DNA from: an uncultured Elusimicrobia bacterium
Lineage (GTDB): Bacteria; Elusimicrobiota; Elusimicrobia; UBA1565; UBA9628
NCBI GenBank assembly: GCA_965283875.1
Contig: CBDIQC010000001.1
Location: forward strand, 106,085 to 170,084
Direction: 5' to 3'
Length of the DNA: 64,000 bases
Shown here: positions 11,212 through 64,000 of the stretch, one piece after another
How positions within the stretch are numbered: position 1 is the first letter of the stretch
How the letters are laid out: every line of letters starts with the position of its first letter
The notes under the pieces: generated by a model
Seen by the model: only the letters and a program-made list of their open reading frames with translations
Databases searched by the model: none
Told to the model about the DNA's origin: nothing
Position numbers and translations under genes: made by a program

Positions 11212-11245
11212 GCGCTTATGGGACCAAATCATGGCGGAAAGGTCA

Positions 11246-11263: not shown

Positions 11264-11268
11264 ACGGC

Positions 11269-11762: not shown

Positions 11763-11769
11763 GCGGGTT

Positions 11770-11779: not shown

Positions 11780-11785
11780 GCGGCC

Positions 11786-22685: not shown

Positions 22686-22705
22686 ATTATACAAAGTGAT
22701 AGAAT
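22686..22705. promoter_or_regulatory. back-to-back extended -10 boxes for the divergent crotonase and GT9 genes
   Basis: Minus: TGTATAAT (22693-22686), then 7 nt, then ATG 22678. Plus: TGATAGAAT (22697-22705), then 7 nt, then GTG 22713. Confidence 0.5.
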
Positions 22706-22712
22706 CGTCCTC

Positions 22713-23760
22713 GTGAGGCTCAAGGACGTCGAGACCGGCGGCAAGGCGCTCCTGCGCGCCACCGTGCTCAAGCTCCTGCCCGCGCCGCGCCGCCACGACG
22801 CGCCCGTGGACCCGGGGTCCGTGCGCCGCGTGCTCGCCGTGCGCCACGACGCGCGGCTGGGCAACCTGCTCCTGCTCACGCCCGCCTTGAAGCTGCTCAA
22901 GCTCGCCTTCCCGAAGGCCGCGGTGGACGTGCTCATCGCCGACGATTACGGCACGGCCCTGGCGCGCAACCCGAACGTGGACGGCCTGCTCACGGCGTCG
23001 AGCCTGCCGGCCCTGCGCTTCAAAGGCTACGACCTCGCCATCGACTTCTCGCCGCAGCACGCGTTCTCGCTGTCGAGCGCGGTGTGGACCGCGCTATCGG
23101 GCGCGCCGCGCCGCGTCGGCTTCGAGCGCGGCGACGCCGGCCGGTTCCTGGGCGACCTGTGCCCGTCCCGGCCGCGCGCGCCCATGAGACCGCCAACCTC
23201 GCCGCCCTCGTGCGCGCCGCCGCGCCGGGCGCGGCCCTGCCGCCCGACGCCGAGCTGCGCACCGAATGGTTTTTCGCCCCGGGCGAAGTGGAAGAGGGGG
23301 AGAGGACCTGGGAGTCGTGGGGCCTCGACGCGCAGTCGGTCGCCTTGTTCCTCGGCGCGCGCGCCGAGAAAGGCTGGACCCGGCCTGGTTCCTGGAGCTG
23401 GCGGCGCGCGTCGCCGCCGCGGGACGCAAGGCCGTGCTCGTCGGCGGCCCCGCCGAGCGCCGCCTCATGGAAGGCTTGAGCCTGCCCGGCGGCGCCAGCC
23501 TCGCGCCGGCGCTGCCCCTGCGCCGCTTCGCCGCGGCCATCGCGGCCGCGCGCGCCGTGGTCTCGGCCGACACCGGGCCCATGCACCTGGCCGTCGCGGT
23601 GCGCACGCCCACCCTCCAGCTGTTCTCCCACACCGAGCCGTGGCGCTTCGGCTACGCGCACCTGCCCGAGCACGCCTTGCTCGAGACCCCGGGGCGGCAC
23701 GCGAGCGTGGACGAGGCCTGGAACGCGTTGTCGGGCTTGCTGGCTAAAAAGCCGGCCTGA
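22713..23760 (+). pseudogene. glycosyltransferase family 9 (heptosyltransferase-like), two frame breaks as assembled
   Basis: RRVLAVRHDARLGNLLLLTPAL.., HETANLAAL.. and ..VVSADTGPMHLAVAVRTP lie in three frames (breaks at ~23155 and ~23370). The start is uncertain (22677, 22713 or 22806). Confidence 0.65.
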
Positions 23761-24724
23761 GCCGCGCGATGTGGGCCGTCAGGGCCGCGTACGCCTCATC
23801 GACCGTGGTCTCCCGGCAGGACTCCCACTCGGGGCACACCGTGCCGCCGTGGCGCGCGCCGCGCGGTCGCCACACCGCCTGGGTGTAGCCCGCGTAGAAG
23901 CCGAAGGTCGGCACGTCGAGCGCGGCCGCCAGGTGCGTGGTGCCCGTGATGTTGCAGACGAACAGGTCCATGCGTTTGAGCATCGCCCCGGTCACGCCCA
24001 GGCGCGCCGGCGGCAGGATGGGCACGGAGACCTTCAGGCGCGAGGACGATGTCGGCCACCTTGCCGTGTTCGCCGGGCCCGCCCATGAAGTAGAGATGCA
24101 ACGTCCGGTCCTCGAACAGGCGGTCGGCCAGCTCGACGAACTTCTCCTCGGGCCAGCGGAAGGAGAAGCGGTCGAAGTTGCCGGGATGGATGAGCACCTT
24201 GAAGCCCGTCTCGGTGGCGCGCGAGCCCAGCAGGCGGTCGGCCTCCTCGACGTCGGCGTCGGGCAGGCGCAGCTCGGGGTGCGGGTCGTAGGGCGCGGCG
24301 AGCGCTTCGGCCAGGCGCGCGCTAGCGGTCGCACGATGTGCTCCTTCTCCGCGGGCGCGGCGACCAGCTGGGTGAACGGGTTGGGGCCGCGCGGCTTGGC
24401 GAAGGCGAGCTTGACCGGCGCGCGCACGGCCTGCGCGAGCATGGTCGAGGTCTTGGAGAAGGAGGAGTTGAGGTCCACGAGCAGGTCCTCCTTGCCGGAC
24501 AAGGAGCGCGCGAGCTTGAGATGGGCGAGCAGGTCCAGCGGCTTGGAGAGCACGACCGTGTCGTCGATGAACGGGATGAGCGGCGGCACCTGCACGCCGC
24601 GCCAGCCGATGATCAGGCGGATGCGCGCCTTCGGGTAGCGCCGGCGCAGCGCGCGCAGGAAGGGGGTGGCGACGATGAGGTCGCCGACGCGCCCGATGTA
24701 GAGACAGGAGATGCGTTCCGCCAC
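23744..24724 (-). pseudogene. glycosyltransferase family 9-like, at least 2 frame breaks as assembled
   Basis: YIGRVGDLIVATPFLRALRRRYP.., ..IHPGNFDRFSFRWPEEKFVELA.. and ..FVCNITGTTHLAAALDVP lie in different frames. TATAAT lies 7 nt before GTG 24722-24724. Confidence 0.65.
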
Positions 24725-24741
24725 GAAGGAGATTATACCTC

Positions 24742-27788: not shown

Positions 27789-29033
27789 TCATTCTCCCAA
27801 TGCCCGGCCCAAGGCCCGGTCCCACGCCGTCTCGGCGTCCATCGCCGTGCGGCGGGCCGACACCGCCTGCCGCTCGGCGGAGACGCGGTCCGACACGATG
27901 AGCTCCCAGTTGTCGAAGCTGAGCAGGCCCGAGGCGTAACGCACGTCGGCCTGCCCTGGTGCGCTGGCGCGCGGCGGCGAGCAGCGTCCTAGGTACTGCC
28001 GACCTGCGCGTCGGCGTCCGCCAAGGACGCCAGGCGTCTCCGAGCTCGCTGAGAGGCCGGACTGGCGCGCGGCGGACAGGTCCTGCGCGGGCGGCCTCGC
28101 GGCCGCGTTTGGCCGACAGGCTGGCGAGCATGGTCTGCGCCGGCCCGCCGCCGAACAGCGGCAGGCTCAGGCTCGCGCCCGCCGACCAGCCGTATCGCGA
28201 GGAGGGGAACTCCGTGCCACCGGTGCGCGTGCGGGAGTAGTTCGCGCTGAGGTTGGGGAAGTAGTCCGCGCGGGCCGAGGCCAGCGCCGCCTCCGAGGAG
28301 CGCAGCGACGCCTCGGCCGAAGCGATCTCGGGGCGCAGCGGCAGCAGCGCGCCGAAGTCGTCGGGGCGCGCGGGCGGCGGGGCGGCGGTGAAGGTGCCGG
28401 TGGCGACGTACGCCTCGAAGCCCTCGCGGCCGAGCTGGCGGCCGAGCTCGCGCTGCGAGGTGCGCAGCTCGCGTCCGGCCGTGGCCAAGGCGACCTCGGC
28501 CTGCAGGAGCTGGGCCTTGGCGCGCAGCATGTTGCCCTTGGATTCGCGGCCCGACTCGTAACGCAGGTTGACCAGCTCCGCGTTGTTGCGCCGCAGCGTC
28601 AGCACCCGGCGCGCCACCTCCAGGCCGGACTGGGCGAGCAGGAGGGCCGAGAAGGAGCGGCGCAGCGAGGAGCGCAGGTCCGCCGAGGCGCGGCGCAGGG
28701 ACGCCTCGGAGGAGGCCAGCGACGCCGACGCCGAGCGGATGGAGGCGTAGTCGCCGAGGTCGAAGAGGGTCAAGGACGCGGACGCCGACGCGCTCCAGGC
28801 GTTGTCGCGCGCGACGTTGGTCTGCGAGACGGAGTTCGTCAGCGAAGGGAGGGGAGCAGGCGGTTATAGGACGAATAATAGGAAAGGCGGCGCGCGTCTC
28901 GCGTCAGGCGAGACGAGGACAGGCCCGGGTTGCCGTCGGCGGCCTGGCGCGCGACGTCCTCCCACGACACGACCAGCGCCCGGGCCGGGACGGCGGCGGC
29001 CAACAAAGCCGCCGCCAAGGCCCTAACGCGCAT
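27789..29033 (-). pseudogene. TolC-family outer membrane factor, several frame breaks as assembled
   Basis: Signal MRVRALAAALLAAAVPARA. OEP repeats (..NAELVNLRYESGRESKGNMLRAKAQLLQAE..). The true C-terminus ..YASGLLSFDNWELIVSD..ALGE stops at 27789-27791, 1 nt before the macA ATG. Confidence 0.7.
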
Positions 29034-31518: not shown

Positions 31519-34500
31519 CCGACCCGTTCGGCCTCCCGGATGGCCCGGATGACGGCGTCGGCCGACACGTCGGACTTCTTGCCCTCGATGCGCGTGAACA
31601 GGCTGTAGGCCCGGGCACCGCGAACAAGGTGAGGAACGTGGACACCGACACGCCGCCGATGATGGCCAGCGCCATGGGCACCGTGGTCTCCGAGCCCGCG
31701 CCGCGCGCGAGCGCGGTGGGGATGGCGGCCGCGATGGTCGCCACCGAGGTCATGAGGATGGGCCGCAGGCGCACCGGGCACGCCTCGAGCAGGGCCGCGC
31801 GCGCGTCCAGCCCGGATTCGCGGCGCGTGTTCGTGAAGTCCACGAGCAGGATGGAGTTCTTCTTCACCAGGCCCATGAGCAGCAGCAGGCCGATCATGGA
31901 GTTGATGTTGAGGCTGCGCCCCGCGATGAGCAGGGCCAAAAACGCGCCCGACAGCGAGAACGGCAGCGCCAGCAGCACGGTGACCGGGTGGATGAAGCTG
32001 TTGAACTGCGCGCCGAGCACCATGTAGGCGACCAGGATGCCGAGCAGCAGCGCGAAGATGAGGCTCTGGAAGGACTCGCGGAAGGTCTGCGAGGAGCCCG
32101 AGAGCTTGACGTAATAGCCGTCGGGCAACGTCTCCTTGGCGGCGGCCTCCACGGCGTCGAGCACCGCGGCCTGGGACTTGCCCGGGGCGATGTTGCCGAA
32201 CACGCCGATGGCGCGTTCACGGTCCTTGCGGGTGATGGCGAGCAAGGACGGCTTCTCCTCGATGGTCACCACGTCCGAGAGCCGGATCATCTCGCCGCGC
32301 ACGTTGCGCACGTAAAGGCGCTTGATGTCCTCGGGCGTGAGCCGGTCGCGGGTCTCGGCGCGCACGCGCACGTCGTAGCGGCGGCCGTTGTCGGTGAACA
32401 GGCCGGCGCGCACGCCGCCGATCATCGCGTTGATGGTGTTGCCGATGACCGACATGGACACGCCGCGGGCGTAGGCCTTGGCGCGGTCCGGGTAAACGCG
32501 GATCTCGGGCATGCCGGTCTTGTAGTCGGTGTCCACGTCGATCATCAGGCCCGTGGCCTCCAGCTTCTTCATGAGCGCCGCCGACGACTCGATGAGCTTG
32601 TCCCAGTTCGGGCCGCGCACGGTGAACTCGATGGGGAAGCCGCGCGAAGCGGAGAAGCCGCCCTGCGAGAGGTCCATGATGAAGGCGCGCACGTCGGGCA
32701 CGCCGTTGAGCGCCTTGCGCGCGTCCGTCATGACGTCGCCCTGGGTGACGGGGCCGCCGCCCTCGCGGCGCGGGCGGTCCTTCAGGTCCTTGAGCGTGAT
32801 GAACAACATGCCGGAGTTGACCTCGCCGCCGCCGAAGCCGCCGACCGCGGAGTAGTAGCCGGCCACCGTCGGGTTGTCGATGAACCACTGCTCGGCCTGC
32901 TTGAAGCGCCCGTCGGTGAACTCCATGGAGGAGCCGACCGGGGTCTGCAGCCGCACCATGAACATGCCCTGGTCCTGGGCCGGGACGAACTCCTTCTTGA
33001 GGAACTTCACCGACACCATCGAGACCGCGAAGAAGGCCGCGCCCAGGCCGATGACGGTCCAACGGTTGTCCAAGGTCCAGACCAGGCCGCGGCGGTAACG
33101 CTCGGCCAAGGACGCGAACAGGCGGTCCACGGCCTGCACCAGGCGGTTGCCGTGCGTGGCGGTCTCGAGGAACTGCGAGGTGCGCATGGGCGCCAAGGTC
33201 AGCGCCTCCAGCAGCGAGAGGGACACCGCCGCCGAGATGGTCACGCCGAACTGGAAGAAGAACTTGCCGATGATGCCCTTCATGAAGATGACGGGCAGGA
33301 AGATGGCGAGCACGGCGATGGTGGCGGCCATGGCCGCGAAGGTGATCTCGCGCGCGCCGATGACCGAGGCGGTGACGCGGTCGCGCCCTTTCTCGACGTA
33401 GCGCACGATGTTCTCCAGCACCATGATGGCGTCATCAACGACGATGCCGATGGACAACGTCAGCGCGAGCAAGGTGAAGGAGTTCAGCGTGAACCCGAGG
33501 AAGTAGGTCACGATGAAGGTGCCCAGCACCGAGGTGGGGATGGCCAGCAGGACGTTCACGGTCGAGGACCACGAGCCCAGGAACAGCCAGCACACCGCCG
33601 ACGTCAGGATGGCCGCGAGGATGAGGTGATGCGTCAACTCGGCCACCGACTGCTTGATGAACTTGGTCGAGTTGAAGCGCACGCCGAGCGTCATGCCCTT
33701 GGGCAAGGTCGGCTGCAGCTCCTTCATCTTCTTCTCGACGCGTTCGGAGATGGCCACCGCGTTGGCGCCGCGCTGCTTGCGGATGCCGATGCCCACCGCG
33801 CGCTGGCCGGCCACGCGCGAGATGCGGCGCTGGTCGGCCAGGCCGTCCTCGATGCGCGCGACCGCCTTCAGCGGGATGGGGACGTGGATGGGGCTGCCGC
33901 CGCGCTGGGTGATGAGCAGCTCGCCGAACTGCGCCGGGTCGGCGATCTCGCCGAGCGTGCGGACGTTGAACTCCTTGGCGGCGGTCTCGATCTGGCCGGC
34001 CGGGATCTCGGCGTGCTCGCGCGAGATGGCCGCCATGACGTCCTCGACGGTCAGCTCGTGGCGCTTGAGCTTCTCGGCGTCCACCCACACGCGCAGGTTG
34101 CGGCTGATGAGCCCGCCCAGGAAGATGTCGCCGACGCCGGGCACGGTCTGGAACTTCGACTTGAGCACGTCCTGCGCATAGACCATCAGGTCCTTGGGCG
34201 GCACGTCGCCCGACAGCGCCATCCACATGATGGGGTTGTCCTCGGGGTTGACCTTGGTGACGACGGGCGGGTCGATGTTGCGCGGCAGGCGCATCTGGGC
34301 CTGGGCGATCTTGGTCTGGATTTCCTGAAGCGCGATGTCCACGTTGCGGTCGAGCTCGAGCTCGACGGTGATGGACGCCTGGCCCTGCTTGGAGGAGGAG
34401 GTGATCTCGCGCACGCCCTGCACCGAGGTGACGGCGTCCTCGATGATGTCCACGACCTCGGCCTCCATGATCTCGGGGGCGGCGCCCTCCCAGCTCACGC

Positions 34501-36833: not shown

Positions 36834-38738
36834 GCGGACGCAGAGCGGTGTGCCGCGCCTTGAGGCGGCGACAGGTCAGGCGCTCGAGCGCCGCACGACA
36901 AGCATGGCCGGACCATACTAGCGCTTCCAGCCGCGCACCGAGGTTGAGCCGCGTCGCCGATCACGGTGTAGCTGCGGCGTACGTTGGAGCCCACGTCGGC
37001 GCGGACGCGCACGTCGCCGCGCGTCGAGGCCACTGCCCGCGGTCGATGCGCCCGCGGCCAGCGCCAGGATGTCGCGAGCCGCGGCGAACGCCCCGTCGGC
37101 GGTGGGGAACACCGCGAAGATGCAGTCGCCGATGAACTTATCGACGTCCCCGCCGCGCGCGCCACCGCGTCGGCCGCCGGCGAGAGCAGGGCGTTGAGCT
37201 CGCGCACGACCTCGGAAGGCGCGCGCGTCTCGCTGAACGCGGTGAAACCTTTCACGTCCATGAACAGGAACGCGCCCTTGAAAGCGGCGTCGGGCACCTC
37301 GTATTGACCGCGCGGCGCGCGCGCCCACCTCGTCCCACACGCCGTGCGGCGTGTAGCGGCGGATGACCGCGCTCTGGCGCCGCAGCTTCTCGCTGTCCTC
37401 GTAGGACTTGCGCGAGAGGTTGGCCATGATGCTCTCGGTGCGGTCGAGCGTGACCTCGGCGCGCGCGAGCGCGCCGGCCGGGTCGCCGGACGCCGCGCCG
37501 GGCTTCAGGCGCGGCAGCGGGCCCACGCGCGTGCGACCGGGCAAGGACAGCGCCATGAGGGTCAGGGTCGTGGTGTGGAAGCCCGACGCCGCCAGGCCCG
37601 CGCCGCCTTCGCGCCAGCGCGAGGCGAACGGCACGATCTCGCCGCCCGAATAGAAGCCGAACACCGGCGTCCGGCGCCCGAACACCTTGCGCACCTGCTC
37701 GAGGCTCCTCGCCCAGGCGGCTGTGCAGGATGGCGCCGCGGCTGCAGCAGCTCACGACGAAGACGAGGTCCGGCCGGCACGCGCCCAGGCTCGCGCGGCA
37801 GCGCTCGGCCGCGGCGCGCGCGCCGGAGAGCAGCGCGCGGCGGCTCGAGAGGATGAGCCGCGCCCGCCGGCCTTGCAGGTCCTCGTGCGGGTACAGGGCG
37901 ATGGAGCCCCCGTTGAAATCGATGTCCACGGGCAGCTTGAAGCTCGGGCGGCCGGCGTCGCTTTCCACCGAGAAGCCGTAACGCTGGATCATCAGCTCGA
38001 AAAACGCGCGGTCGTGCCCGCCGCCGAGCAGGCGGCGGTAGAAATCGATCACCGGGCGGCCGTCCACCTCGAAGACGCGCCCGCCGCGCGCCTTGGTGAT
38101 GACGAAGGTCGGCCCCACCGGGTCCCAGCCGTGTTCGTAGGCGAACGCGCCGCGCGCGCCGTCGGGCAAGGTCACCAGCGCCGCGCGCGCCGCGTCGCGC
38201 CGTCAGGCGCGGCCCGTATTGGTAGTTGGTCCAGAAGTCGGCGTGTTTCATGCCCAGGTCGTAGTCGCCGCCAGGTCATGCCGCCGAACACCGGGACCGC
38301 GCTCAGGCCTCGCGCAGGCCGGCCATGGTCTCGCTGCTCGCGGCCCGACGTCAGCGAGCCGAAATAAAGCCCGAGCGGGCGGCCGGCCGCAGGCGCGGGC
38401 CGCAGCGCGTCGCAGCTCGCGGGCGGCTGCGCCGCACCGAGCAATCGGCGCCGACGCCACGAACGGCGCGGGGCCGCCCTGAGTCCAGCGACAGCGCCAC
38501 GACGCTGTTTTTAGTGACGCCCGCGGGGCTCACCTCGGCGTAGGAGGAGCCGCCGAGGAGCCGGTCCGCGTCGAACTCGGACGTCAACACGCGGTTGACG
38601 CGGCGCTGGTCGAGGCTGGATGGAGCCGAAGGCCACGGTCAGGTCCGGGCGGGGGACGCCTTTGAGCGCCTGTCGGGCCGCGTCCGCGGCGGCTCGCTCC
38701 CCATCGGGGCCGTGGCCCAGGCCGATGCCGATCCTCAC
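36785..38738 (-). pseudogene. FIST_N/FIST_C sensor fused to a class III adenylate/guanylate cyclase domain, at least 6 frame breaks as assembled
   Basis: VRIGIGLGHGPDGERAAADAARQAL.., ..FGFYSGGEIVPF.., then ..FLFMDVKGFTAFSE.., VDKFIGDCIFAVF and YTVIGDAVNLGARLE, scattered over three frames. TAGACT lies 6 nt before GTG 38738. Confidence 0.65.
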
Positions 38739-55413: not shown

Positions 55414-56347
55414 AGCGACGCGCGAATCTTTCGGCGAGACCATCCTGGAGGTCGCCGAGAAGAACCCGAACGTGGTCGTCTTGGACGCCGACCTGTCCAA
55501 GTCCACGATGACCCAGCCGTTCATGAAGAAGTACCCGGCGCGCCACTTCGAAGTGGGCATCGCCGAGCAGAACATGGTCGGCATGGCCGCGGGCCTCGCG
55601 CTTTCGGGCAAAATCCCGGTGCTCACCTCCTTCGCGTGTTTCCTCATCGGCCGCGTGGAATCCATCCGCGTGTCCGCCGCCTACAACCAGACGAACATGA
55701 AGCTCGTCGGCACGCACGCCGGCATCGGCATCGGCGAGGACGGCACCTCGCAGATGGGCCTCGAAGACGTCGCGGCCATGCGCGCGTTGCCGCACATGAC
55801 CATCCTGCAGCCCGCCGACCACGCCGAGACCCAGCAGGCCGTGCGCTGGATGCTCGAGCACAAAGGCCCGGTCTATATCCGCCTCACGCGCCAGAAGATG
55901 CCCGACGTGCACGGCCCCGACTACAAGTGGCAGCCCAACAAGATCGACGTGTTGTGGGAGCCCGCCAAGAAGCCCGCGAAGTACCAGGCGACCATCATCG
56001 CCTCCGGCGGGCCGGTGCCGCACGCCATCGAGGCCGCCAAGGCCGCCGAGGCCAAGGGCTTCGCCGTGCGCGTGGCCAACGCCTCGACCTTGCTGCCCTT
56101 CGACCACGAGGCCGTGGCGCGTTTCGCCAAGGACAGCCAGCGCGTCGTGACCGCCGAGGACCACAACGTGCACGGCGGCCTGGGTTCGGCCGTGTGCGAA
56201 GCCATCGCCGAACACGGCGTGGCCTGCCCCGTCGTGCGCGTCGGCCTGCGCAGCTTCGGCGAGTCCGCGACCCCCGAGCAGCTCTACGAGAAATACGGCC
56301 TGACCGCCCCGGCCCTTCTCGAGGCCTGCCTCAAGAACCTCGCTTAA
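55403..56347 (+). CDS. transketolase, C-terminal subunit (split form)
   Basis: 314 aa with FEVGIAEQNMVGMAAGLA and GTHAGIGIGEDGTSQMGLEDVA. AAGGAG SD and an 11-nt overlap with the N subunit. Confidence 0.93.
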   Translation: MPAKATRESFGETILEVAEKNPNVVVLDADLSKSTMTQPFMKKYPARHFEVGIAEQNMVGMAAGLALSGKIPVLTSFACFLIGRVESIRVSAAYNQTNMKLVGTHAGIGIGEDGTSQMGLEDVAAMRALPHMTILQPADHAETQQAVRWMLEHKGPVYIRLTRQKMPDVHGPDYKWQPNKIDVLWEPAKKPAKYQATIIASGGPVPHAIEAAKAAEAKGFAVRVANASTLLPFDHEAVARFAKDSQRVVTAEDHNVHGGLGSAVCEAIAEHGVACPVVRVGLRSFGESATPEQLYEKYGLTAPALLEACLKNLA

Positions 56348-56351
56348 CGCC

Positions 56352-57905
56352 CTAAGCTAACGCGCGCAACGAAGCCTGCGCGGCTTTGACGCCGCGGTAA
56401 TGCGCTTCCTCGAACAAGGACAGGCCGGACATGTCCGAATGCGCGAACGAGACGGGGCCGACGGGCGAAAGCGCCGCGCGGCGCGCGGCGCCGAACAGGA
56501 AGCCGGGGCGGGGGAGGATCATCCCGTGGCCCCACAGCCAGGCGTCCAGGCGCGTGGCCCTTTCGCGGATGTCCGGGTGGGCGCGCGCCAAATCGTCGAG
56601 GCACAGGTCGCGGCATTTCGCCCAATCCCAGCCGAAGGCCTCCTGGCGGCGAGCCGACGGGCCGCCGGTGAGCGGGCGGTAATACGTCCACACCGTGCGC
56701 CGCCGATCGAGGCTGATGTCCTGGTGGCGAGCGTCCACGTAACCGAGCCCCTGGCCGTTGTAGAGGACGTTGTCCCAGCTCGGCGGCGCGCCGTGGCCGT
56801 CGGCCGGGCGCTCGAGCGTGACGTTGCAGGTCAGCCACGGCGCGTAGTCGAAGCCTTCGGCCGACAGGCCCGGCACCAGACGCGCGGCGACGTAGCGCGG
56901 GGCCGCGACGATGACGCGTTTGGCGCGCAGGCGGCGGGCGTCGCCGCCCGAGGCGTCCATCGAGTCCACGACCGCGCCGTCCCCGTCGGGCGCGACGCGA
57001 TAAACGAGGCGCCCGCCGCGCACGCGTTCGCCGGCGCGCTCGAGCAGCTTCTTGATGAGCCAGCCGTTGCCCTCGGGCCAGGTCAACACGCGGTCGTGCT
57101 CGCCCTCGGCGCGGGCGGCGAAGTAATGCAGGCCCGCCCAGGCCGACACCTCCTCGGAAGTCCCGCCGTAGTCGTCGCGCATGGCGTAGTCCACGTACCA
57201 TGATAAACGGGAGGAGGTGAAGCCCTCCTGCGCCAGCCACGCCTTCATCGAGAGGCGGTCGAGGGCGGCCAGCTCGGTGGAGCTGCGCTCCATCGGGATG
57301 GCGAACAGCGGACGGCCGTCGCGCCCGCGGCCGTCGCGATACGTCCGGATGCGCGCGTCCCAGCGCTCCTTCTGGCGCCGATCGTCGGGCGACATCCCGT
57401 CCGACGGATACAAGCCGTCCTGCCAGCGTCCGTGGATGAACAGCCGTTCCTCCGGCGCGTGGCACAGGTAACGTTCGTCGTAACGGTCCTCGCCGCTGAG
57501 CACGCCCAGCTCGCGCAGGAGCGTCTTGAGCTCGGTCGCGTGCGGCCCGGGCACCGGCAGGTAATGCGCGCCCCACGGGTAGGCCGACACCTCGTTTTCG
57601 CCCCAGGCCGCGTTGCCGCCGGCGCGGTCCTCGAGCTCGAGCAGCTCGAAATCGTCGAAGCCCGCGCGGCGCAGCTCCCAGGCCGCCGACAGCCCGGCCG
57701 CGCCGCCGCCGACGATGACGAGGGGGACCTTGTCCTCGCGCGCCGGCGCGGGGAACTTGCCCGCGCGAAGCTTGTGGCCGCGCTCGCGCGAGGGGCCCAG
57801 CAAGGAGCCGTATAAAGGCGGGCGGCGGACGCAGGCGCCCAGCGCGACGGCCGCGAGGCCCGCGCCGAGGAACTCGCGACGGCTTATTGGACGACCTTCT
57901 CCCAT
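56352..57905 (-). CDS. FAD-dependent amine-oxidase-like oxidoreductase with a Tat-type signal
   Basis: 517 aa with MGEGRPISRREFLGAGLAAVALGAC (twin-Arg) and dinucleotide fold VIVGGGAAGLSAAWEL..ELEDRAGGN. Confidence 0.75.
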   Translation of the reverse strand: MGEGRPISRREFLGAGLAAVALGACVRRPPLYGSLLGPSRERGHKLRAGKFPAPAREDKVPLVIVGGGAAGLSAAWELRRAGFDDFELLELEDRAGGNAAWGENEVSAYPWGAHYLPVPGPHATELKTLLRELGVLSGEDRYDERYLCHAPEERLFIHGRWQDGLYPSDGMSPDDRRQKERWDARIRTYRDGRGRDGRPLFAIPMERSSTELAALDRLSMKAWLAQEGFTSSRLSWYVDYAMRDDYGGTSEEVSAWAGLHYFAARAEGEHDRVLTWPEGNGWLIKKLLERAGERVRGGRLVYRVAPDGDGAVVDSMDASGGDARRLRAKRVIVAAPRYVAARLVPGLSAEGFDYAPWLTCNVTLERPADGHGAPPSWDNVLYNGQGLGYVDARHQDISLDRRRTVWTYYRPLTGGPSARRQEAFGWDWAKCRDLCLDDLARAHPDIRERATRLDAWLWGHGMILPRPGFLFGAARRAALSPVGPVSFAHSDMSGLSLFEEAHYRGVKAAQASLRALA

Positions 57906-59370
57906 TCGGCCTCGTAGTAGCGCACGAGGGCTTGCGTGTCGAGCCGGTTGACGTCGGCGTCCACGCGCGCCATGTCGGCGGGGAATTCGAAGAGCGACGG
58001 CAAGGTGGCCGTGGTCAGGTAGCGCAGCCCTTCGGGCAGGCGCAGCGGCGGCCGGTACTCTCCGGCGCCGCCGATGACGAAGCCCCACTCGCCGAAGGAG
58101 GGAACGTAGGTGTGGTACGGCGCCGTCTTCCAGCCCGCGTCGGCCATGGTTTTCTCGATGCACCAGAACGAGCGGCGCGCGAACAGCGGCGACGTCGCCT
58201 GCACCGAGATGAGCCCGCCGCGCGCCATGCGCCGCTTGAGCAGCCGGTAGAACGGCGCGGAGAACAGCTTGCCGACGGCGTAGTTGGAGGGGTCGGGGAA
58301 ATCGACGATGGCCGTATCGAAGCCGCCCAGCGAGGTCTCCAGCCACTTGAAGGCGTCGGCGTTGACCACGCTCACGCGCGGGTCGCGCAAGGGCCGCCGT
58401 TGAGGCGCGAGAGCTCGGGTGCTCGAGAGCTACGGCATGCAGGCGGTCACCGCAACGTCGACCGCACGGACGCGTCAGGTCGCGCGGCACCTGCCAGGCC
58501 AGCCGTCGCCGCCGGCACCAGCACGCGCGCAGGCCTCCTTGGTGCGCCTGCGGCCATCACCGGGTGCACCAGCGCCTCGTGGTAGCGGTACTCGTCCATC
58601 GTCGAGAACTGCAGGTGCCCGTTGAGGAACAGCCGCCAGTCGTCCTTCCAGCGCGTGAGCACGATGCGCTGGTACGACGTGGTCTTGGCGAAGATGACCT
58701 CGTCGGCGAACAACGAGCCTTCGGCGTGTTCGGCGATGGCCTTGGAGCCGGCCAGGCCGGCGACGAGCAGGACGGCCGCCGCCGCGCACATGGCCTTGAG
58801 CCGCGCCGCGTCGGGAATCTCGTCGCGCAGCAGGCGCAGGGCCAGCGCGGCCACGCCGACGTTGAGCAGGCCGAAGACGAACGCGGTGTTGAGCAGGCCC
58901 AGGCGCGGCACGAGCACGAGGGGGAACAGGATGGACGCCCCCAACGCGCCCAGGTAGTCCACGGTGAGCACCTGCGACACCAGGTCCTTGAAGTCGAGCT
59001 TGCCCTTGAGCAGCCGCATGAGCAGCGGGATCTCCATGCCCACCAACGTGCCCACCAGCAGCACGAGCAGGTAGAGCACCAGCCGGAAGCCCGCCGCGTA
59101 GGTGAACGTCAGGAACAGCAGCGCCGCCGACCAGCCGCCGACGAGCCCGACGAGGATCTCGATCTGCACGAACCGCGCGGCCAGGCCGCGGCCCACGTAT
59201 TTCGACAGCCAGGACCCCACGCCCATCGCGAACAGGTGCGCCCCGATGACGGTCGAGAACTGCAGGACCGTGTCGCCGAGCAGGTAGCTCGCCAGCGCCC
59301 CCGCCACGAGCTCGTAAACGAGCCCGCAGGTGGCGACGACGAACAACGAGGCCAGCAGCGCGTGCGTCAC
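57884..59370 (-). pseudogene. membrane-anchored spermidine-synthase-like aminopropyltransferase, at least 4 frame breaks (58390-58560) as assembled
   Basis: The N-terminal ~7-TM block (..VGLVGGWSAALLFLTF..) is followed by ..YQRIVLTR..LFLNGHLQFSTMDEYRYHEALVHP... The GGGDG region is scrambled. The C-terminal ..VVNADAFKWLE..VDFPDPSN..SVQATSP.. is intact. Confidence 0.75.
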
Positions 59371-59383
59371 GGCCGCTCCGTCT

Positions 59384-59602
59384 TCAGCCCAGGACCGCGG
59401 CGGCGATGATGAGGCCCATGCTCACCGAGATGCCCGCGATCACGGTCGCGAGCGCGCAGTTCTGCTTCTGGACGATCTCGGCCCACAGGTCGTAGGGCGT
59501 GAGCTTGTCGAAGAGGCAGAACCAGGCGGTGAACACGGCCACGCCGATGCCGGAATAAACGACGGCCGCGGCGAGGTGCGAGACGTCCAGGATGTTCTTC
59601 AT
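59384..59602 (-). CDS. DUF350-like small membrane protein
   Basis: 72 aa with 3 TM. GGAGG lies 3 nt upstream. ATGA overlap with the upstream ORF. Confidence 0.7.
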   Translation of the reverse strand: MKNILDVSHLAAAVVYSGIGVAVFTAWFCLFDKLTPYDLWAEIVQKQNCALATVIAGISVSMGLIIAAAVLG

Positions 59603-59781
59603 TTTCCTCCGGTGTAGCGTCGGTAATGCGAATAGTGGGAACGATAGGAGCCCGGGTTGTCGCGCACGGATTTGGGCACGCCCGTGACCTTCTCGACGGG
59701 CGTGAGCCACCAGCCCGTCCACAACGCCCAGCCCAGCGCGGCGACGAGCGCGCCGGCGTAGAAGCGGTAGTAGCGGCTCAT
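59599..59781 (-). CDS. small membrane protein (1 TM, basic Tyr/Arg-rich tail)
   Basis: 60 aa: MSRYYRFYAGALVAALGWALWTGWWL..SYRSHYSHYRRYTGGK. ATGA overlaps at both ends support translation. Confidence 0.5.
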   Translation of the reverse strand: MSRYYRFYAGALVAALGWALWTGWWLTPVEKVTGVPKSVRDNPGSYRSHYSHYRRYTGGK

Positions 59782-61160
59782 TCGTCGTCCTCCCAGTCGT
59801 CGTCGGATTCGACGACGCGAGGGTGGTCGCTTTCCATCCAGCGCTCGTTCTCGAAGACCTCGCGGCGCATCCAGGCGTAAAGCAGCGGCAGCAGGAGCAG
59901 GAGGAAGGCGATCAGCGGCAGGCGCGCCAACGTGACGTCGCGTACGAGCGCCACGCGCAGAGAGAGCGCGGACTGGTCGGTCTCGGGCTCCACGCGCAGG
60001 TAATAACGTCCGGCGGGCACGCTGGGGAGGTACGCCTTCGCGTGCGTGCTCCCTCGTTCCAGGCCTCGCCGTCGTCCACGCCGTGGTAATGCGACAGCTC
60101 CACGCCGAAGTCCAACGCCACGTCGGTGTCGGCGTTGATGAGGGTCATGTTGGCGTAGGCCCAGTGGTTGTCCAGGTTGGAATCCACCTGCACCATCACG
60201 TTCGAGGTCCGCCCCGGAATCTCGAAGACGTCGCTCACGCGCGACTTCTCCGCGTCCGTGGCCGTGAAGTCGAAGCCGGCCGCGAACACGCCTTTGCCGG
60301 AGGACAGCGCGCCGATGAAGAAGTAGAGGCCGATGATAAGCGCGGCCGCCGTGAGGAAGCTCGCCTGCATGGACGGCAGGTGCGCCTGCCACGGGTTGGG
60401 CTGGGCCGGCGCGACCGAGCGCGGGCGCGGCGGGGCGGAGCCCTTGGGACCGAACGCCGCCCAGACCTCCTCGGGCTCGACGTATTCGCCGCGCGACCGC
60501 ACCGACTCGCCTTCCGTCACCTCGTTGGAGAGCAGGAAGGGGGGCGCGACGAAATCGCGCGCGCGCACGCGGTCGCCGGCGGCCGCGAGCCAGGGGAACT
60601 CGCCGAGCACGTGCGTGGTGACGGGAACGCTGGTCTGGAAGTGGGCGTAACGCACGCCTTCGTAAACGAAGGAGGGGTTCTGGCCGGCGTCCGGGTTGCG
60701 AACCTTGGACATGTCCTCGGGCTGCGGCTTGCCGCCGGCGCCTTTCGGCGATTTCGCGTCGTCGGGCTTCTTCTGCGGGCTCGGGCGCTGCGAGCGCCGC
60801 GGCGGGCGCGGCCGCGAGCGGCGCGACGGGGTCCTGGCTCTCCAGCTCGCCGCCGAAGGCGACCTTCTCGACGCCGCAGAGCCGGCGCAACGTCTGGATC
60901 TCGCCCACGTCGAACCACAGGCCGCCGCAGGCCTGGCACTGATCGAGCACCAGCTGGCCGCCGGCGGTCTGGCCGACCTTCAGGCGCGCGTCGCAGCGCG
61001 GGCAGGCCAGGCTCGACTCGGCGAGCGTCTCGAGCTTGAGCGGCACCGCGAGCTCGCCTTTGTCGTAGAACACCCCGAAACACTTCGGGCAGGCGTCCAC
61101 CGTCGTCTCGGGCGTGACCTCGTGCGGCTCGAGCGGCGCCCGGCATTTAGGGCAGTTCAT
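59778..61160 (-). pseudogene. 2 x zinc ribbon + DUF4178-like + C-terminal TM protein, two frame breaks (~60785, ~60050)
   Basis: MNCPKCRAPLE..ACPKCFGVFYD and ACPRCDARL..CQACGGLWFD. Then ..FVYEGVRYAHFQTSVPVTTHVLGEFPW.., a TM segment and ..YYLRVEPE..LPLIAFLLLLLPLLYAW... Confidence 0.65.
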
Positions 61161-61544
61161 CCGAGCAGCCCCTTGCGCGGCTCGGGCTCGTCGGGCAGGT
61201 TGCGCGCCAGCAGCCAATGCCCGTTGGACTCGACGAGCCAGCGGAAGCCCCGGTAGCGGGTTCCACAGCAGGTATTCGCCCCAGTCGTAGTCCACGCCGT
61301 AATAGCGCACGCGTTTGCGCTGGTAGCCGACGATCTCGAGCTCCTCGCCGCGGATGACGCCGCGCGCGCCGATGGGCAAGGTCGGGGGGACGTCGAGCTT
61401 GGAGAAATATTTCCCGACCAGCGCCATGCGAGGGTCGCGCGCGTCGAGCGTGGCGCCGCAATATTGGCAGGCGATGGTGCGCGTGACGCCTTCCGCGCGC
61501 AGCGTCAGCGTGCCGCCGCATTGCGGGCAGTCGAACTTCTTCAC
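61157..61544 (-). CDS. zinc ribbon + DUF4178-like protein, one frame break (~61262)
   Basis: GTG start. KKFDCPQCGG..IACQYCGA, then ..IRGEELEIVGYQRKRVRYYGVDYDWGEYLLWNP / YRGFRWLVESNGHW. ATGA/GTGA overlaps with its neighbours. Confidence 0.7.
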
Positions 61545-62187
61545 GCGGGCCTCTTCCAGCCCTCGAACTCGCGCAGGCCCGTGAGCTTGAGGTCGTCGAA
61601 CTCCTCGTATTCGCCGAGGAACAGCAGCGGCCGCTCCTCGCCCTCCGACCAGTCGAGCGTGGCGAACTTGCGGCCGGGGGCGACGAGGTCGGCCGACGGC
61701 GCTTCCGCGCCCAGCGGCGGGCGGAAGGGCAGCTCGCCCTCGGCCGAAAGGTACCGGGCCTTCAGCAGGTCGCGCACCCGGAACGTCGCGCCGCCCAGCT
61801 CGAGCTTCTGGCCGACCTTGAGGTTCTTGAACAGCGGGACGTTGGCGGGCGTCGCCGCTTGGAAGCTCACCGCGTACGCGCCCTGCGCCTCGCCCAGCCA
61901 GCCTTGTTTGCCGTCGCCGAAGACGATGTTCCACTCGTTCCAGTAGGTCCCGTCGGTGGAGAGCTGGACGCGGCCCACGATTTCGAAGGACGCGCCCTGG
62001 TGCTGGCCGCGGCCGCCGACCTGGAGAGGCGTGCCGTCGGGCAGAGCTGGGCGACCTCGCCGAGCTTCTCCACGTCGAGGTCCTTGCGCTGGACCAGGCT
62101 GGAGCAATGCCCGCACACGGCCAGCAGGCAGATGGAGGTCTTAAAGACGATCGCGGCGCCGCAATGCGGGCACTTACGCTCGATCAT
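61541..62187 (-). CDS. zinc ribbon + DUF4178-like protein, one frame break (~62040)
   Basis: MIERKCPHCGA..AVCGHCSS, then ..GASFEIVGRVQLSTDGTYWNEWNIVFGDGKQGWLGEAQG... Confidence 0.7.
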
Positions 62188-63260
62188 ACTCGTGGGCCGT
62201 ATCCTAGCAGATGACGGCCCAGGTCGGGATTGGAACCGTCGAAGCGCCAGATCCACGCGTCGAGGAGATAATGAACGGCCTGCGGCAGCGCGAGCAACGG
62301 GACCAGCAGCGACAGCAGGACGGGCCCCGGCTCCCACGCCGTGGCCAGGCCGAAGAACACCGACGCGTGCTCCTTCCAGACCAGGAAATCCCACGCGCCT
62401 TCTTCGACGTAGGCCAAGACGAGCAGCAGCCCGATGAAAAACGCGGCGCCCGCCGGCCGGTGGATGGCCCCGCGCCAGCCGCCGTCGCCGGCCCATTTGC
62501 GGCTGCCGTAGAGCCAGACGAGGGCGAGGTAGGGCACGCCGTGCGCGACCACGTTGGTCGCTGTGAAGGCGAAGTCCGAGTTCGTCGCCACGATGCCGAC
62601 GTACCAGGCCGCGGCCGTGGAGAACACGACGCCGACCTTGCCCGGGTTCACCGGCAGGCCCGCGCGGACGCGCGCGAGCTGGCGGAGGACGAAGGCGCCG
62701 AGCACCGCCGCGTACGCCGCGCCGGCCCAGCCGCCCGCCCACGCGTGCAGGCGCACGAAGTCGCCCTGGACGAACCACCAGAACTTGCGCGCCGGGTCGG
62801 CGTGCCAATACACCAGCGGGTACAGCATCGTCGCGTAGATGGCCGCGGCGTCGAGCCTCGCCTCCCAGGCCGGGCGCGGGCCCTCCAGGCGCGCGTAGGC
62901 GCGCAGGAAGCCGTATTGCTGGCGCACGAAGTGGAAGACGGCGAGGTAGGCGAAGCCCCGCCAGAACGCGAGCGGCGAGACGCGGTGCAGCGCGACCCCC
63001 GCGACCCAGGCCGCCAGAGGAAGATAGACGTACAGGGAGCGGCGGCGCGCGAACTCCTCGGGGTCGAGGTAGGTGCGGTACAACGACGCGTACACGTGGC
63101 CCACGTCGATGAACACCACGAACAGGAGCCAACCCCACGTCGGCGTGTCGGCGGCGCGCAGCGCGGGCAGCAGCAGCACCGCCGACGCGGCCAGGAGCGG
63201 CGGCCCGCAGAACCAGCCCAGGTCGAAGGCGGCCGAATGCAGCCACCGGCGTTCGCTCAC
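62184..63260 (-). CDS. polytopic membrane protein with conserved-looking His motifs, unknown family
   Basis: 358 aa from GTG 63258-63260, about 9 TM. DVGHVYASLYRTY, VFHFVRQQYGF, VAHGVPYLALVW and AVHYLLDAWIWR. ATGA overlap with the next gene. Confidence 0.6.
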   Translation of the reverse strand: MSERRWLHSAAFDLGWFCGPPLLAASAVLLLPALRAADTPTWGWLLFVVFIDVGHVYASLYRTYLDPEEFARRRSLYVYLPLAAWVAGVALHRVSPLAFWRGFAYLAVFHFVRQQYGFLRAYARLEGPRPAWEARLDAAAIYATMLYPLVYWHADPARKFWWFVQGDFVRLHAWAGGWAGAAYAAVLGAFVLRQLARVRAGLPVNPGKVGVVFSTAAAWYVGIVATNSDFAFTATNVVAHGVPYLALVWLYGSRKWAGDGGWRGAIHRPAGAAFFIGLLLVLAYVEEGAWDFLVWKEHASVFFGLATAWEPGPVLLSLLVPLLALPQAVHYLLDAWIWRFDGSNPDLGRHLLGYGPRV

Positions 63261-63266
63261 CCGGGC

Positions 63267-63272
63267 ATTATA
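63267..63272 (-). promoter_or_regulatory. -10 TATAAT, 6 nt before GTG 63260 (operon promoter, leaderless layout)
   Basis: Minus strand reads cttcaTATAATgcccggGTG. Confidence 0.45.
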
Positions 63273-63348
63273 TGAAGGAGGAGAGCGGGCGTCACGCCGT
63301 CATCACGCGGGGCTTGCGGCGGCGCGGGGGGGCGGTTATCCTACGGCG

Positions 63349-64000
63349 ATGGCCTGGGAAGACGACCTGGACCCGGATTGGATCCACGAGCTGCCGTTCT
63401 GGCTCGTGGCCGCCATGGCCCACGGCGCGCTCCTGACGCTCAACCCCGTGCTGCGCTGGGGCACGGCCCCGCGCGCCGACGAGAAGATCGTGCCCGTGGA
63501 GTTCGTCGCCGCGCTGCCCGTCGTGCTGCCCAACCTCGCCCCGGCCGCCGGCGACGGCACCACCGCCGCGCCGCGCCACGGCCCCGGCGCCTATGAAGCG
63601 CCCAAGGTGAAAGCCGGCGCGGCCGACGCGCCGCCCAAGGCCAAACCCGTGGCCAAACCCGCCGCCGTCAAAGGCCCGGCCGTCAAACAAGGCTCGACGG
63701 TGAAGGCCCAGGCCGCCAAGGCCGTGGCGCCGCCCGCCCGCGACCCCGCGGCCGAGACGCGCCGCGGCGCCGCCGCCGCGAATCGGCCCGCATCCAGGCC
63801 GCGGCCGTCGCGCGCGCCAAGGCCGAACGCGCCGCCGAGCGCGCCGGCGCCGAGCGCGCGCCGAGCGCGCGCAGCGCGCGGCCGAGAGCGCGGCCGCGGC
63901 CGAGGCCGCGCGGCACGCGCCGCGCTGGCGGCCGAACGCGCCGAGGAGGCGCGCCTCGAGCGCGAGCGCGTCGCCGAGCAGAAACGCGAGATCGCGCGGC
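63349..64000 (+). CDS. TolA/TonB-like protein, partial, with frame breaks in the Ala/Arg/Glu-rich part
   Basis: MAWEDDLDPDWIHELPFWLVAAMAHGALLTL (TM), then VPVEFV, a Pro/Ala/Lys-rich linker and ..AERAEEARLERERVAEQKREIA. TATCCT lies 6 nt before the ATG. The ORF runs off the window. Confidence 0.4.
   Translation, partial: MAWEDDLDPDWIHELPFWLVAAMAHGALLTLNPVLRWGTAPRADEKIVPVEFVAALPVVLPNLAPAAGDGTTAAPRHGPGAYEAPKVKAGAADAPPKAKPVAKPAAVKGPAVKQGSTVKAQAAKAVAPPARDPAAETRRGAAAANRPASRPRPSRAPRPNAPPSAPAPSARRARAARGRERGRGRGRAARAALAAERAEEARLERERVAEQKREIAR

Follow-up and report, generated by a model that had tools for sequence, protein, structure and literature searches.

The window, a 64-kb stretch of DNA that was analysed as a whole, carries eight genes (A to H) that a re-reading of its open reading frames placed on the minus strand. 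The genes and their putative promoter are the following:

63267..63295, minus strand: sigma70-like promoter, GTGACG-17 nt-TATAAT, matching 10 of 12 consensus positions
62184..63260, minus strand: gene A, 358-aa polytopic membrane protein with about 10 transmembrane (TM) helices
61541..62187, minus strand: gene B, about 214 aa, CxxC...CxxC zinc ribbon and complete DUF4178
61157..61544, minus strand: gene C, 128 aa, zinc ribbon and N-terminal half of DUF4178
59778..61160, minus strand: gene D, about 459 aa, multi-domain, with the C-terminal half of DUF4178
59599..59781, minus strand: gene E, intact ORF for a 60-aa single-TM protein with the tail motif VPKSVRDNPGSYRS
59384..59602, minus strand: gene F, 72-aa two-TM DUF350 protein (Pfam E 2.3e-13)
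57884..59370, minus strand: gene G, 7 TM helices and a spermidine-synthase-like (PABS) domain
56352..57905, minus strand: gene H, 517-aa FAD protein of the amine oxidase superfamily

The genes are chained by ATGA/GTGA start/stop overlaps at 62184-7, 61541-4, 61157-60, 59778-81 and 59599-602, followed by a 13-nt gap between F and G and a 22-nt overlap between G and H; the boundaries and overlaps thus lie where the first-pass annotation had placed them. The TATAAT that it had reported 6 nt upstream of the GTG start of gene A (63260) is indeed present, at 63272-63267, and the promoter is the only sigma70-like match in the 8 kb from 56000 to 64000, where 0.2 matches were expected from shuffled sequences. 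The arrangement TATAAT/TATGAT-N6-GTG is kept in five Elusimicrobiota loci (the window, L003, L001, L005 and L007). With only 6 nt between the -10 box and the start of gene A, the operon mRNA may be leaderless. The same eight-gene operon is found intact in L001, L002 and L003. We conclude that the eight-gene operon of this Elusimicrobiota bacterium, as read from the sequence, is real.

Domain content of the encoded proteins

The domains named in the first pass (DUF4178, DUF350, Spermine_synth and Amino_oxidase) were all recovered with Pfam profiles. DUF4178 was matched by B (E 5.5e-14), C (3e-6) and D (4e-6), which had been taken for three tandem paralogues. However, C matches only positions 2-59 of the profile and D only positions 64-136. 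Furthermore, C(1-116) and D(159-444) are collinear with a single 461-aa protein of Asticcacaulis (locus L070), C aligning with residues 17-129 of this fused CD protein. The three genes thus hold two DUF4178 units, not three: one whole in B and one split between C and D. C and D result from fission of one ancestral gene, which other phyla have kept undivided. Seven loci encode B and CD as one fused protein.

D begins with two TFIIB-type zinc ribbons (Zn_ribbon_TFIIB, 5e-19), a disordered linker and its half of DUF4178, which precedes a TM helix. After this helix the chain is predicted to form a jelly-roll beta-sandwich in the periplasm and to cross the membrane a second time, before an acidic tail that carries the conserved motif F-E-x-x-R-W-x-E-S-D. 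The AF2 model of a D orthologue (P0278) has a pLDDT of 87.7, and Foldseek related the beta-sandwich to TNF-like, ephrin-LBD-like and CBM-like folds (E down to 4e-5). E is 77-92% identical in L001 and L003, and E-like ORFs are found at the corresponding place in loci of Acidobacteriota, Myxococcota and Bacteroidota. F, which is about 72 aa long in 31 loci, covers the first half of the DUF350 Pfam profile.

In G, the Spermine_synth domain (E 9e-16) is preceded by 7 TM helices, in agreement with the approximate count given before. Its orthologue in L003 scores 682 bits against NCBIfam NF002956 (PRK03612; cut-off 472); among solved structures, G is nearest to Thermus TAAPT and thermospermine synthase. 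Residues Y263, GGGD288G, D308, D342 and D360-x-x-D363-P are kept in at least 95% of 50 G homologues. Four of these correspond, with a position offset relative to PDB 1inl, to Y76, D101, D173 and D176 of the Thermotoga maritima enzyme, which are catalytic and binding residues (PMC7298707). The 7-TM domain bears conserved acidic residues; its K/R residues are confined to loops 2-3, 4-5 and 6-7, and the N-terminal extensions are K/R-rich. The positive-inside rule, taken by itself, would place the catalytic domain in the periplasm. A periplasmic PABS domain would require dcAdoMet outside the cytoplasm, for which we know of no precedent.

H gives a weak full-length match to Amino_oxidase (positions 2-440 of 443, E 1.4e-16). 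Its profile matches MAO, LAAO, polyamine oxidases, putrescine oxidase and the Tat-exported SpdH, mostly over the FAD fold, and H appears convincingly amine-oxidase-like only over this FAD-binding fold. Its substrate could be a non-amine, as CrtI, HpnE and PPO, which belong to the same superfamily, act on non-amine substrates. The Tat motif SRREFL is present as claimed and is followed by a lipobox-like LGAC; the RR motif is found in 39 of 52 H homologues. H is thus predicted to be exported by Tat, and is probably lipid-anchored.

A gave no match in Pfam or NCBIfam, and none in the PDB either by sequence profile or by Foldseek (best E 0.23, TM ≤ 0.2) with its AF2 model (pLDDT 89.7). The family comprises 2127 clusters at 50% identity. 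In the alignment of A homologues, five histidines are invariant (H55, H110, H153, H240 and H330), together with D52, E69, R113, Q114, D167, D229, N236, E286, E287 and D334.

Frame breaks in four of the eight genes

In the deposited sequence B, C, D and G are frameshifted and do not form intact ORFs. At least five frame-breaking events were located in these four genes by GC3 frame tracking and frameshift-aware alignment to the intact L003 orthologues. Single breaks lie near 62044-62046 in B, 61256 in C, and 60752 and 60049 in D; that in B is also backed by tblastn and by frameshift-aware alignment to the intact orthologues of both L001 and L003. In G, several indels at about 58390-58560 destroy the GGGDG dcAdoMet motif. 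Frame trouble had been noted at this last site alone, but it is not confined to it.

The breaks are most likely indel errors of the assembly, because similar breaks occur throughout the window and intact copies exist in relatives. About 15 like breaks fall in unrelated genes of the window, including those for GT9, FIST, OEP and AcrB proteins, a pattern typical of error-prone long-read assembly (here a 3.1-Mb single contig). In addition, GC3 holds at 0.9-1.0 in the shifted frames without further decay, and protein identity to L003 is 80-96% on either side of every break. All this speaks against genuine pseudogenes, that is, an operon that is dead in this genome, which we consider quite improbable. 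What such an explanation has in its favour is the accumulation of events in half of the genes, several of them over the GGGDG motif, and the absence of obvious homopolymer runs at the indel sites. Moreover, the deposited assembly contains the breaks and annotates D as a 266-aa fragment (P0355), and break density is somewhat higher, about threefold, in the operon (∼5 in 6.9 kb) than elsewhere (∼15 in 56 kb).

Distribution of the module and related systems

The order B-CD-E-F-G-H-A recurs in Acidobacteriota, Bacteroidota, Proteobacteria, Myxococcota, Planctomycetota and Melainabacteria, often joined by an AdoMet decarboxylase (AdoMetDC) and a Band-7/SHOCT or PspA gene. Co-occurrence was counted in 43 loci where A is flanked on either side by at least 8 kb: G and H are present in 32, accompanied by C and D in 21, and A stands without G and H in 11; AdoMetDC is found in 20 and Band-7/SHOCT in 10. 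A is the gene immediately following H in 40 of 51 loci, and G neighbours H in 40/47. In Asticcacaulis L070 the genes encode Band_7_1+SHOCT, DUF4178, DUF4178-TM, DUF350, Spermine_synth, Amino_oxidase, A and AdoMet_dc. Many Acidobacteriota have G-H-A without B-F, and in 12 Acidobacteriota loci PspA faces G-H-A in convergent orientation. L001, L002 and L003 have a Guanylate_cyc+RDD gene after H, the cyclase being confined to close relatives. No gene for AdoMetDC, Band-7/SHOCT, PspA, CesT/Tir or cyclase-RDD was found in the 64-kb window. The Elusimicrobiota layout, with A as the first gene, C and D split and two TFIIB-type zinc ribbons added to D, is new.

As judged from this conservation, the DUF4178 pair, H and A are core parts of the same module in at least 8 phyla, so that the supposed triplication, the exported oxidase and the His-rich protein do not set this version apart, contrary to what the first-pass annotation had proposed. 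A is a core partner, newly recognised here. Its role can be suggested purely from adjacency and conserved residues.

G shares with the PRK03612/NF002956 group N-terminal TM helices joined to a PABS domain and the linkage to DUF350 and DUF4178. We take SpeE (Rv2601) of Mycobacterium tuberculosis and the Rv2597-Rv2601 neighbourhood to belong to this group, the mycobacterial type presumably having DUF4247 and DUF2617 partners in place of H and A.

A neighbourhood of DUF4178, DUF350 and aminopropyltransferase genes, which the first pass had given as being of no known function, is borne out by our survey of 80 loci and by Popp et al. (mSystems 2024, PMC11237479), and the literature searched reports no tested function for it. 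In that paper, comparative genomics defined PspA/Band-7-associated 'polyamine' operons with a 7TM-spermidine-synthase-like protein, DUF350 (YjfL family) and DUF4178, and 'aminopropylation of other substrates' was already put forward. G (7TM and PABS), DUF350, DUF4178 and amine-oxidase-like genes are common to these operons, as there described, and the window; L070 is exactly their Band-7/SHOCT, AdoMetDC and oxidase variant, and is collinear with the window genes. The window differs in lacking PspA, CesT/Tir, Band-7/SHOCT and AdoMetDC, and in having A first and not last, CD split and two TFIIB zinc ribbons on D. Family A does not appear in the sections of that paper considered here.

Two further systems resemble single proteins of the operon. 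SpdH of Pseudomonas aeruginosa (PDB 7d9f-7d9j) is an FAD and heme b enzyme of polyamine breakdown that hands electrons from the flavin to heme b, not to O2 (PMC12564564). The H profile (5-107) matches the SpdH chain (3-117) with an E of about 1e-8, from the N-terminal signal through the FAD fold; however, the match is limited to about 100 residues, and H, some 100 aa shorter than SpdH, showed no heme domain. If H were a dehydrogenase, its acceptor would be a separate protein, for which A might be a candidate. Like G, SpeE2 of the Pseudomonas 'ISS locus' (Beskrovnaya et al., mBio 2020, PMC7298707) carries a spermidine-synthase-like domain on N-terminal TM helices; its operon is conserved, biochemically uncharacterised and linked to a phenotype in host interaction. 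Unlike G, which keeps all these residues, SpeE2 (847 aa) has its catalytic Asp replaced (T556, E624, P627), and its partner genes differ from those of G.

Possible function of the module

An uncharacterised membrane-associated polyamine-type system seems a fair label for the locus. Our preferred reading, tentative at a probability of roughly 45%, is that it represents the Elusimicrobiota form of a widespread membrane module in which G would aminopropylate, and H oxidise, an amine at the membrane or envelope. The conserved core would consist of G (a 7-TM-anchored aminopropyltransferase), H (a Tat-exported FAD amine-oxidase-like enzyme) and A (polytopic and His/Asp/Glu-rich). G would use dcAdoMet from an AdoMetDC, encoded within the operon in many phyla and absent from this window, to modify at the membrane an amine other than bulk cytoplasmic putrescine, a cationic substrate that its 7-TM domain may deliver. 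H would then oxidise the product of G, or a related amine, at the outer face of the inner membrane. A may be an obligate membrane partner of H, either as an electron- or metal-handling subunit or by translocating or processing the same substrate. B, C and D would amount to one zinc-ribbon protein with two DUF4178 units and a beta-sandwich in the periplasm, and form, with E and F, a non-catalytic scaffold or sensor part, which in other phyla is joined to Band-7/SHOCT or PspA membrane-stress proteins.

Alternatively, the locus could serve ordinary polyamine metabolism, with G as a membrane-tethered spermidine, spermine or thermospermine synthase, H as a polyamine oxidase or dehydrogenase acting in back-conversion or catabolism, and the other genes as passengers. 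The canonical dcAdoMet-binding and catalytic Asp residues of G, its nearest structures, the NCBIfam family name ('polyamine aminopropyltransferase'), the matches of H to polyamine oxidases, putrescine oxidase and SpdH, and the 20/43 loci with AdoMetDC in the operon would all fit. However, the conservation of the eight-gene order over at least 8 phyla and the B/CD fusions argue that the other genes are not passengers, and H is predicted to be exported whereas polyamine pools are cytoplasmic. Bacteria with membrane spermidine-synthase fusions are also said, in 2019 work by Li and colleagues that comprises the only experiments on this enzyme class known to us, to lack spermidine, and such a fusion reportedly failed to complement an Escherichia coli speE mutant, which would argue against spermidine synthesis by this enzyme class. 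Since the membrane domain of those fusions was reportedly described as MFS-like, they may be a related family and not PRK03612. On balance we regard ordinary metabolism as rather unlikely.

We are similarly doubtful that the locus is primarily a signalling or sensing device, in which the D beta-sandwich would sense an envelope cue, the zinc-ribbon DUF4178 proteins would relay it in the cytoplasm (to the cyclase in close relatives, to PspA or Band-7 elsewhere), and G and H would merely tune a local polyamine signal. The layout of D (TM, periplasmic jelly-roll, TM, conserved cytoplasmic tail) is sensor-like, and the cyclase gene after H and the linkage to PspA and Band-7/SHOCT point the same way; PMC11237479 proposes that polyamine concentration or aminopropylation is what PspA systems monitor. 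Nevertheless, no recognised output domain is encoded in the window, and the cyclase is restricted to close relatives. In many Acidobacteriota the G-H-A trio occurs without B-F, so it is the catalytic trio, more than the other genes, that stays constant in the module.

Gene layout, promoter and state of the reading frames

The eight minus-strand genes, named A (first) to H (last), were found exactly at the starts and stops assigned in the first-pass annotation. Its DUF4178, DUF350, Spermine_synth and Amino_oxidase calls were confirmed by Pfam, with the refinement that C and D each hold half a DUF4178 domain.

Genes of the operon (window positions)
62184-63260, minus strand: A, polytopic membrane protein, no Pfam or NCBIfam match
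61541-62187, minus strand: B, DUF4178 (Pfam profile 1-133)
61157-61544, minus strand: C, DUF4178 (Pfam profile 2-59 only)
59778-61160, minus strand: D, DUF4178 (Pfam profile 64-136 only) and two Zn_ribbon_TFIIB
59599-59781, minus strand: E, single-TM protein, no Pfam or NCBIfam match
59384-59602, minus strand: F, DUF350 (Pfam)
57884-59370, minus strand: G, 7-TM aminopropyltransferase, Spermine_synth (Pfam)
56352-57905, minus strand: H, Tat-signal FAD protein, full-length Amino_oxidase (Pfam)

Five start-stop overlaps of the ATGA/GTGA type chain the genes, a 13-nt spacing that contains GGAG separates F from G, and G and H overlap by 22 nt. The operon is flanked upstream by a divergent TonB-like gene and downstream by a convergent, split transketolase gene, whose stop lies 4 nt from that of H (window 56347-56352). 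In this DNA of ∼70% G+C, the TATAAT (63272-63267) forms the -10 box of GTGACG-17-TATAAT, the sole sigma70-like match in 8 kb (chance expectation 0.2). The arrangement TATAAT/TATGAT-N6-GTG before A is kept in five Elusimicrobiota loci whose flanks have otherwise diverged, and this suggests that the A transcript is leaderless or nearly so. The opposite strand of the 88-bp divergent intergenic region (63261-63348) has TATCCT-N6-ATG, with the ATG of the TonB-like gene at 63349, and both divergent transcripts may be leaderless. No RNA element was found by Rfam at 55500-64000.

The reading frames of B, C, D and G are broken, with clean frame switches inside them as revealed by GC3 frame tracking. 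The positions were obtained by frameshift-aware alignment with the intact orthologues of L003, an Elusimicrobiota relative.

Frame breaks in the operon (window positions)
near 62046: frame break in B
near 61256: frame break in C
near 60752 and 60049: frame breaks in D
58390-58560: several indels in G, which scramble the GGGDG motif

The deposited genome contains the same breaks, as shown by its annotation of D as a fragment of 266 aa (P0355). About 15 like breaks occur in unrelated genes elsewhere in the window, several of them with truncated Pfam matches (GT9, FIST_C, AcrB), which gives the entire window the look of an indel-prone assembly. Frame switches without stop codons are seen, for example, at window 17514-19276, 22705-24736, 27810-28845, 31520-31608 and 37140-38200; the many genes hit outside the operon include two of the GT9 heptosyltransferase-like type (three frames each), one with a FIST domain, one for outer-membrane efflux and, at its end, one of the AcrB type.

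It could be argued that the operon is dead in this genome through genuine decay, because the density of breaks is somewhat higher inside it (∼5 events in 6.9 kb versus ∼15 in 56 kb elsewhere). However, GC3 is still 0.9-1.0 after each shift, both sides of each break are 80-96% identical to L003, and the breaks are window-wide. The operon breaks are therefore probably sequence errors, and the density difference leaves decay a small residual probability. Decay is compatible with any reading of the operon's function, since it concerns only whether the present copy works.

A conserved membrane module with a G-H-A core

The operon is a conserved, co-transcribed membrane module with a constant core G-H-A, which in other phyla is linked to AdoMet decarboxylase (AdoMetDC) and to PspA or Band-7/SHOCT. 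In three Elusimicrobiota relatives (L001, L002 and L003) all eight genes are intact and arranged as in the window, and H is followed by a ninth gene of the Guanylate_cyc plus RDD type (∼395 aa).

Regions after H with the cyclase-RDD gene (locus positions)
L003 7444-8940
L001 16988-18166

L003 additionally has an 84-aa ORF after H. By regex and tblastn no trace of the cyclase-RDD gene was found in the window, and AdoMetDC, Band-7/SHOCT and PspA were not detected in its 64 kb by the same searches. Pfam annotation of the L001 and L003 genes shows neither Band-7/SHOCT nor PspA.

When a profile of A was scanned over one genome per species, more than 593 matching stretches were obtained from many phyla, and the operon proteins were compared with 80 fetched loci by tblastn. 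The usual order outside Elusimicrobiota is [Band-7/SHOCT] [AdoMetDC] B-CD-E-F-G-H-A [AdoMetDC]. In 43 loci A is flanked by 8 kb or more on either side. Both G and H are present in 32 of these 43, C and D as well as G and H in 21, AdoMetDC in 20 and Band-7/SHOCT in 10. The start of A directly follows H on the same strand in 40/51 cases, and G and H are adjacent in 40/47. The Asticcacaulis locus L070 reads, in Pfam terms, Band_7_1+SHOCT, DUF4178, DUF4178 (461 aa), DUF350, Spermine_synth, Amino_oxidase, A, AdoMet_dc. In 12 Acidobacteriota loci (L009-L013, L017-L019, L021, L025, L026 and L031; about 11090-12210) a convergent PspA/IM30 gene follows A, with G and H usually before A. Beyond PspA, L018 has ORFs that, judged by sequence alone, are putatively CesT-like, channel-like and DUF4178-like. 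Among loci with A and without G and H no common context was seen, except PspA in some Acidobacteriota. AdoMetDC directly adjoins A in another Elusimicrobiota genome (L008, about 9620) and in a Hydrogenophilales locus (L058, about 11094), where neither G nor H was found by tblastn within 10 kb.

Passages of PMC11237479, the one paper of the library searched to treat this neighbourhood, describe 7TM-PABS (a spermidine-synthase-like domain), DUF350 and DUF4178, and a variant that includes polyamine oxidase together with Band-7-SHOCT and AdoMetDC; family A is not mentioned in these passages. The window has the first three in one operon and has neither the PspA-CesT/Tir dyad nor the Band-7-SHOCT gene of that class. 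From the absence of Band-7/SHOCT and PspA in the window, L001 and L003, we conclude that the operon is a dyad-less Elusimicrobiota relative of the PspA/Band-7-associated class and not a PspA operon, and we regard the identification of the class as highly probable. New with respect to the known neighbourhood are: i) family A as a core member, ii) the fission of C and D and the B-CD fusions, iii) the conserved small protein E, and iv) the predicted orientation of the chemistry towards the periplasm. For the window itself the message is more modest: a known-unknown operon, its copy most probably marred by sequence errors, in an error-prone assembly, a well-defined problem rather than a surprise.

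Family A is a widespread family of membrane proteins (2127 clusters at 50% identity) that had not been recognised before and is here added to the compact G-H-A core. With 40 members, no Pfam match was obtained even at E ≤ 10; NCBIfam gave none, and no PDB match was found by sequence profile or by Foldseek (best E 0.23, TM ≤ 0.2). The AF2 model (pLDDT 89.7, pTM 0.87) has about ten TM helices. Invariant in 40 homologues are H55, H110, H153, H240 and H330, together with D52, E69, R113, Q114, D167, D229, N236, E286, E287 and D334. A di-heme cytochrome b was considered; four of the five invariant histidines, each on a helix of its own, are at a similar depth near the middle of the membrane instead of forming two layers. 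Long A 'fusions' with Peptidase_M1 and LptD (P0140, 1278 aa; P0231, 990 aa) are probably read-through gene calls and were not used.

Proteins B to F

DUF4178 (PF13785; gathering threshold 25 bits, 136 profile positions) matches B with 52.9 bits over positions 1-133. C (27.8 bits, positions 2-59) and D (27.4 bits, positions 64-136) also pass the threshold, each with half a domain only, and the two halves together equal one DUF4178 domain of the 461-aa L070 protein. Residues 1-116 of C align with 17-129 of that protein and residues 159-444 of D with 137-449. Since C and D align with successive parts of a single protein, the Elusimicrobiota pair is, judged by the alignments, a gene fission inside the DUF4178 domain, and D has in addition a disordered linker and two zinc ribbons of the TFIIB type. 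This D architecture is seen in over 80 clusters at 90% identity, and all named ones are Elusimicrobia.

A single protein of ∼630-640 aa combines B and CD in seven loci from Planctomycetota, Myxococcota and Bacteroidota (L022, L043, L051, L057, L059, L060 and L066); its architecture is ZnR-DUF4178-ZnR-DUF4178-TM-beta-sandwich-TM. In sequence terms, these fusions are a Rosetta-stone link between B, C and D of the window. In the AF2 model of D (pLDDT 87.7) the zinc ribbons are followed by a half-domain rich in beta strands and then by a beta-sandwich between two TM helices. By Foldseek the beta-sandwich is similar to TNF-, ephrin-LBD- and CBM-type jelly-rolls, and a near-invariant F-E-x-x-R-W-x-E-S-D motif is located in the cytoplasmic tail. 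B, C and D form one functional, scaffold-like unit with a periplasmic domain. F matches DUF350/YjfL (PF03994; gathering threshold 26 bits) with 50.8 bits over positions 4-65 of 133, that is, one two-TM repeat. E, which matches neither Pfam nor NCBIfam, is a conserved small protein.

G, H and the proposed activity

The L003 orthologue of G belongs to NF002956/PRK03612, 'polyamine aminopropyltransferase', with 682 bits over positions 20-521 of 522 (NCBIfam curated cut-off 472 bits). The score was measured on the intact L003 copy, the window copy being frame-broken, and the two window fragments are 83-92% identical to it. Y263, GGGD288G, D308, D342 and D360-x-x-D363-P (D360-F-P-D363-P) are kept in at least 95% of 50 G homologues; the window G retains VDFPDPSN, and its GGGDG stretch (58390-58560) is unreadable through several indels. 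Four of the conserved residues correspond, with a position offset relative to PDB 1inl, to Y76, D101, D173 and D176 of the T. maritima enzyme, listed as catalytic and binding residues (PMC7298707). Since the family keeps these aminopropyltransferase residues, G looks catalytically competent. In Pseudomonas SpeE2 of the ISS locus, in contrast, the catalytic residues are replaced, and the proposal that SpeE2 is of the same family as G was rejected on this ground.

Lysines and arginines of the seven-TM region of G are confined to loops 2-3, 4-5 and 6-7, and the N-terminal extensions of homologues are K/R-rich. With the positive-inside rule as its one basis, this distribution predicts a periplasmic PABS domain.

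H scored 61.3 bits against Amino_oxidase (PF01593; cut-off 19.8 bits) over positions 2-440 of 443 and contains the FAD-fold motif VIVGGGAAGLS, which places it in the flavin amine oxidase superfamily. That superfamily also includes desaturases and PPO. Among solved structures, the H profile matches oxidases of amines, polyamines and L-amino acids, with most alignments restricted to the N-terminal FAD-binding fold. Spermidine dehydrogenase SpdH, an FAD/heme b enzyme, is matched as well, in an alignment that starts in the signal region. H has an export signal and is a predicted Tat lipoprotein: S/T-R-R-x-F-L, a hydrophobic stretch and a lipobox Cys are present in the window copy (SRREFLGAGLAAVALGAC). 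The RR motif occurs in 39/52 H homologues; a Cys often comes after it, and a strict lipobox does so in 13.

Li et al. 2019 reportedly noted the same neighbourhood, with a hint said to be negative for putrescine as acceptor of the aminopropyl transfer. Ordinary polyamine synthesis and catabolism is an unlikely account of the operon, and a sensing device is given the same low weight. The reading that we prefer, at a probability of roughly 45%, combines aminopropylation by G and oxidation by H at the membrane or envelope, with A as partner and B-F in support. G would aminopropylate a membrane- or envelope-associated amine and not bulk putrescine, H would act on the outer side of the inner membrane and oxidise either the product of G or a related amine, A would be the membrane partner of H (an electron or metal handler, or a translocase), and B-F would scaffold or regulate.

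A bolder version, which we rate below both ordinary metabolism and sensing, makes the entire catalytic side extracytoplasmic. The seven-TM part of G would pass decarboxylated S-adenosylmethionine through the membrane to a periplasmic PABS domain modifying an envelope amine (a lipid head group, peptidoglycan or other periplasmic amine), H would process the product or remove the modification, and A would be a new-fold intramembrane metallo- or heme-protein completing the pathway. If true, this would add a novel type of envelope modification, tied to the PspA/Band-7 systems of membrane stress.

Thousands of bacteria have AdoMetDC and a membrane 'spermidine synthase' that apparently do not yield spermidine, and the product formed instead bears on polyamine biochemistry and on PspA/Band-7 membrane-stress biology. 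The question of the product is directly testable, since culturable carriers exist in Asticcacaulis, Corallococcus, Taibaiella, Mucilaginibacter and Foetidibacter.
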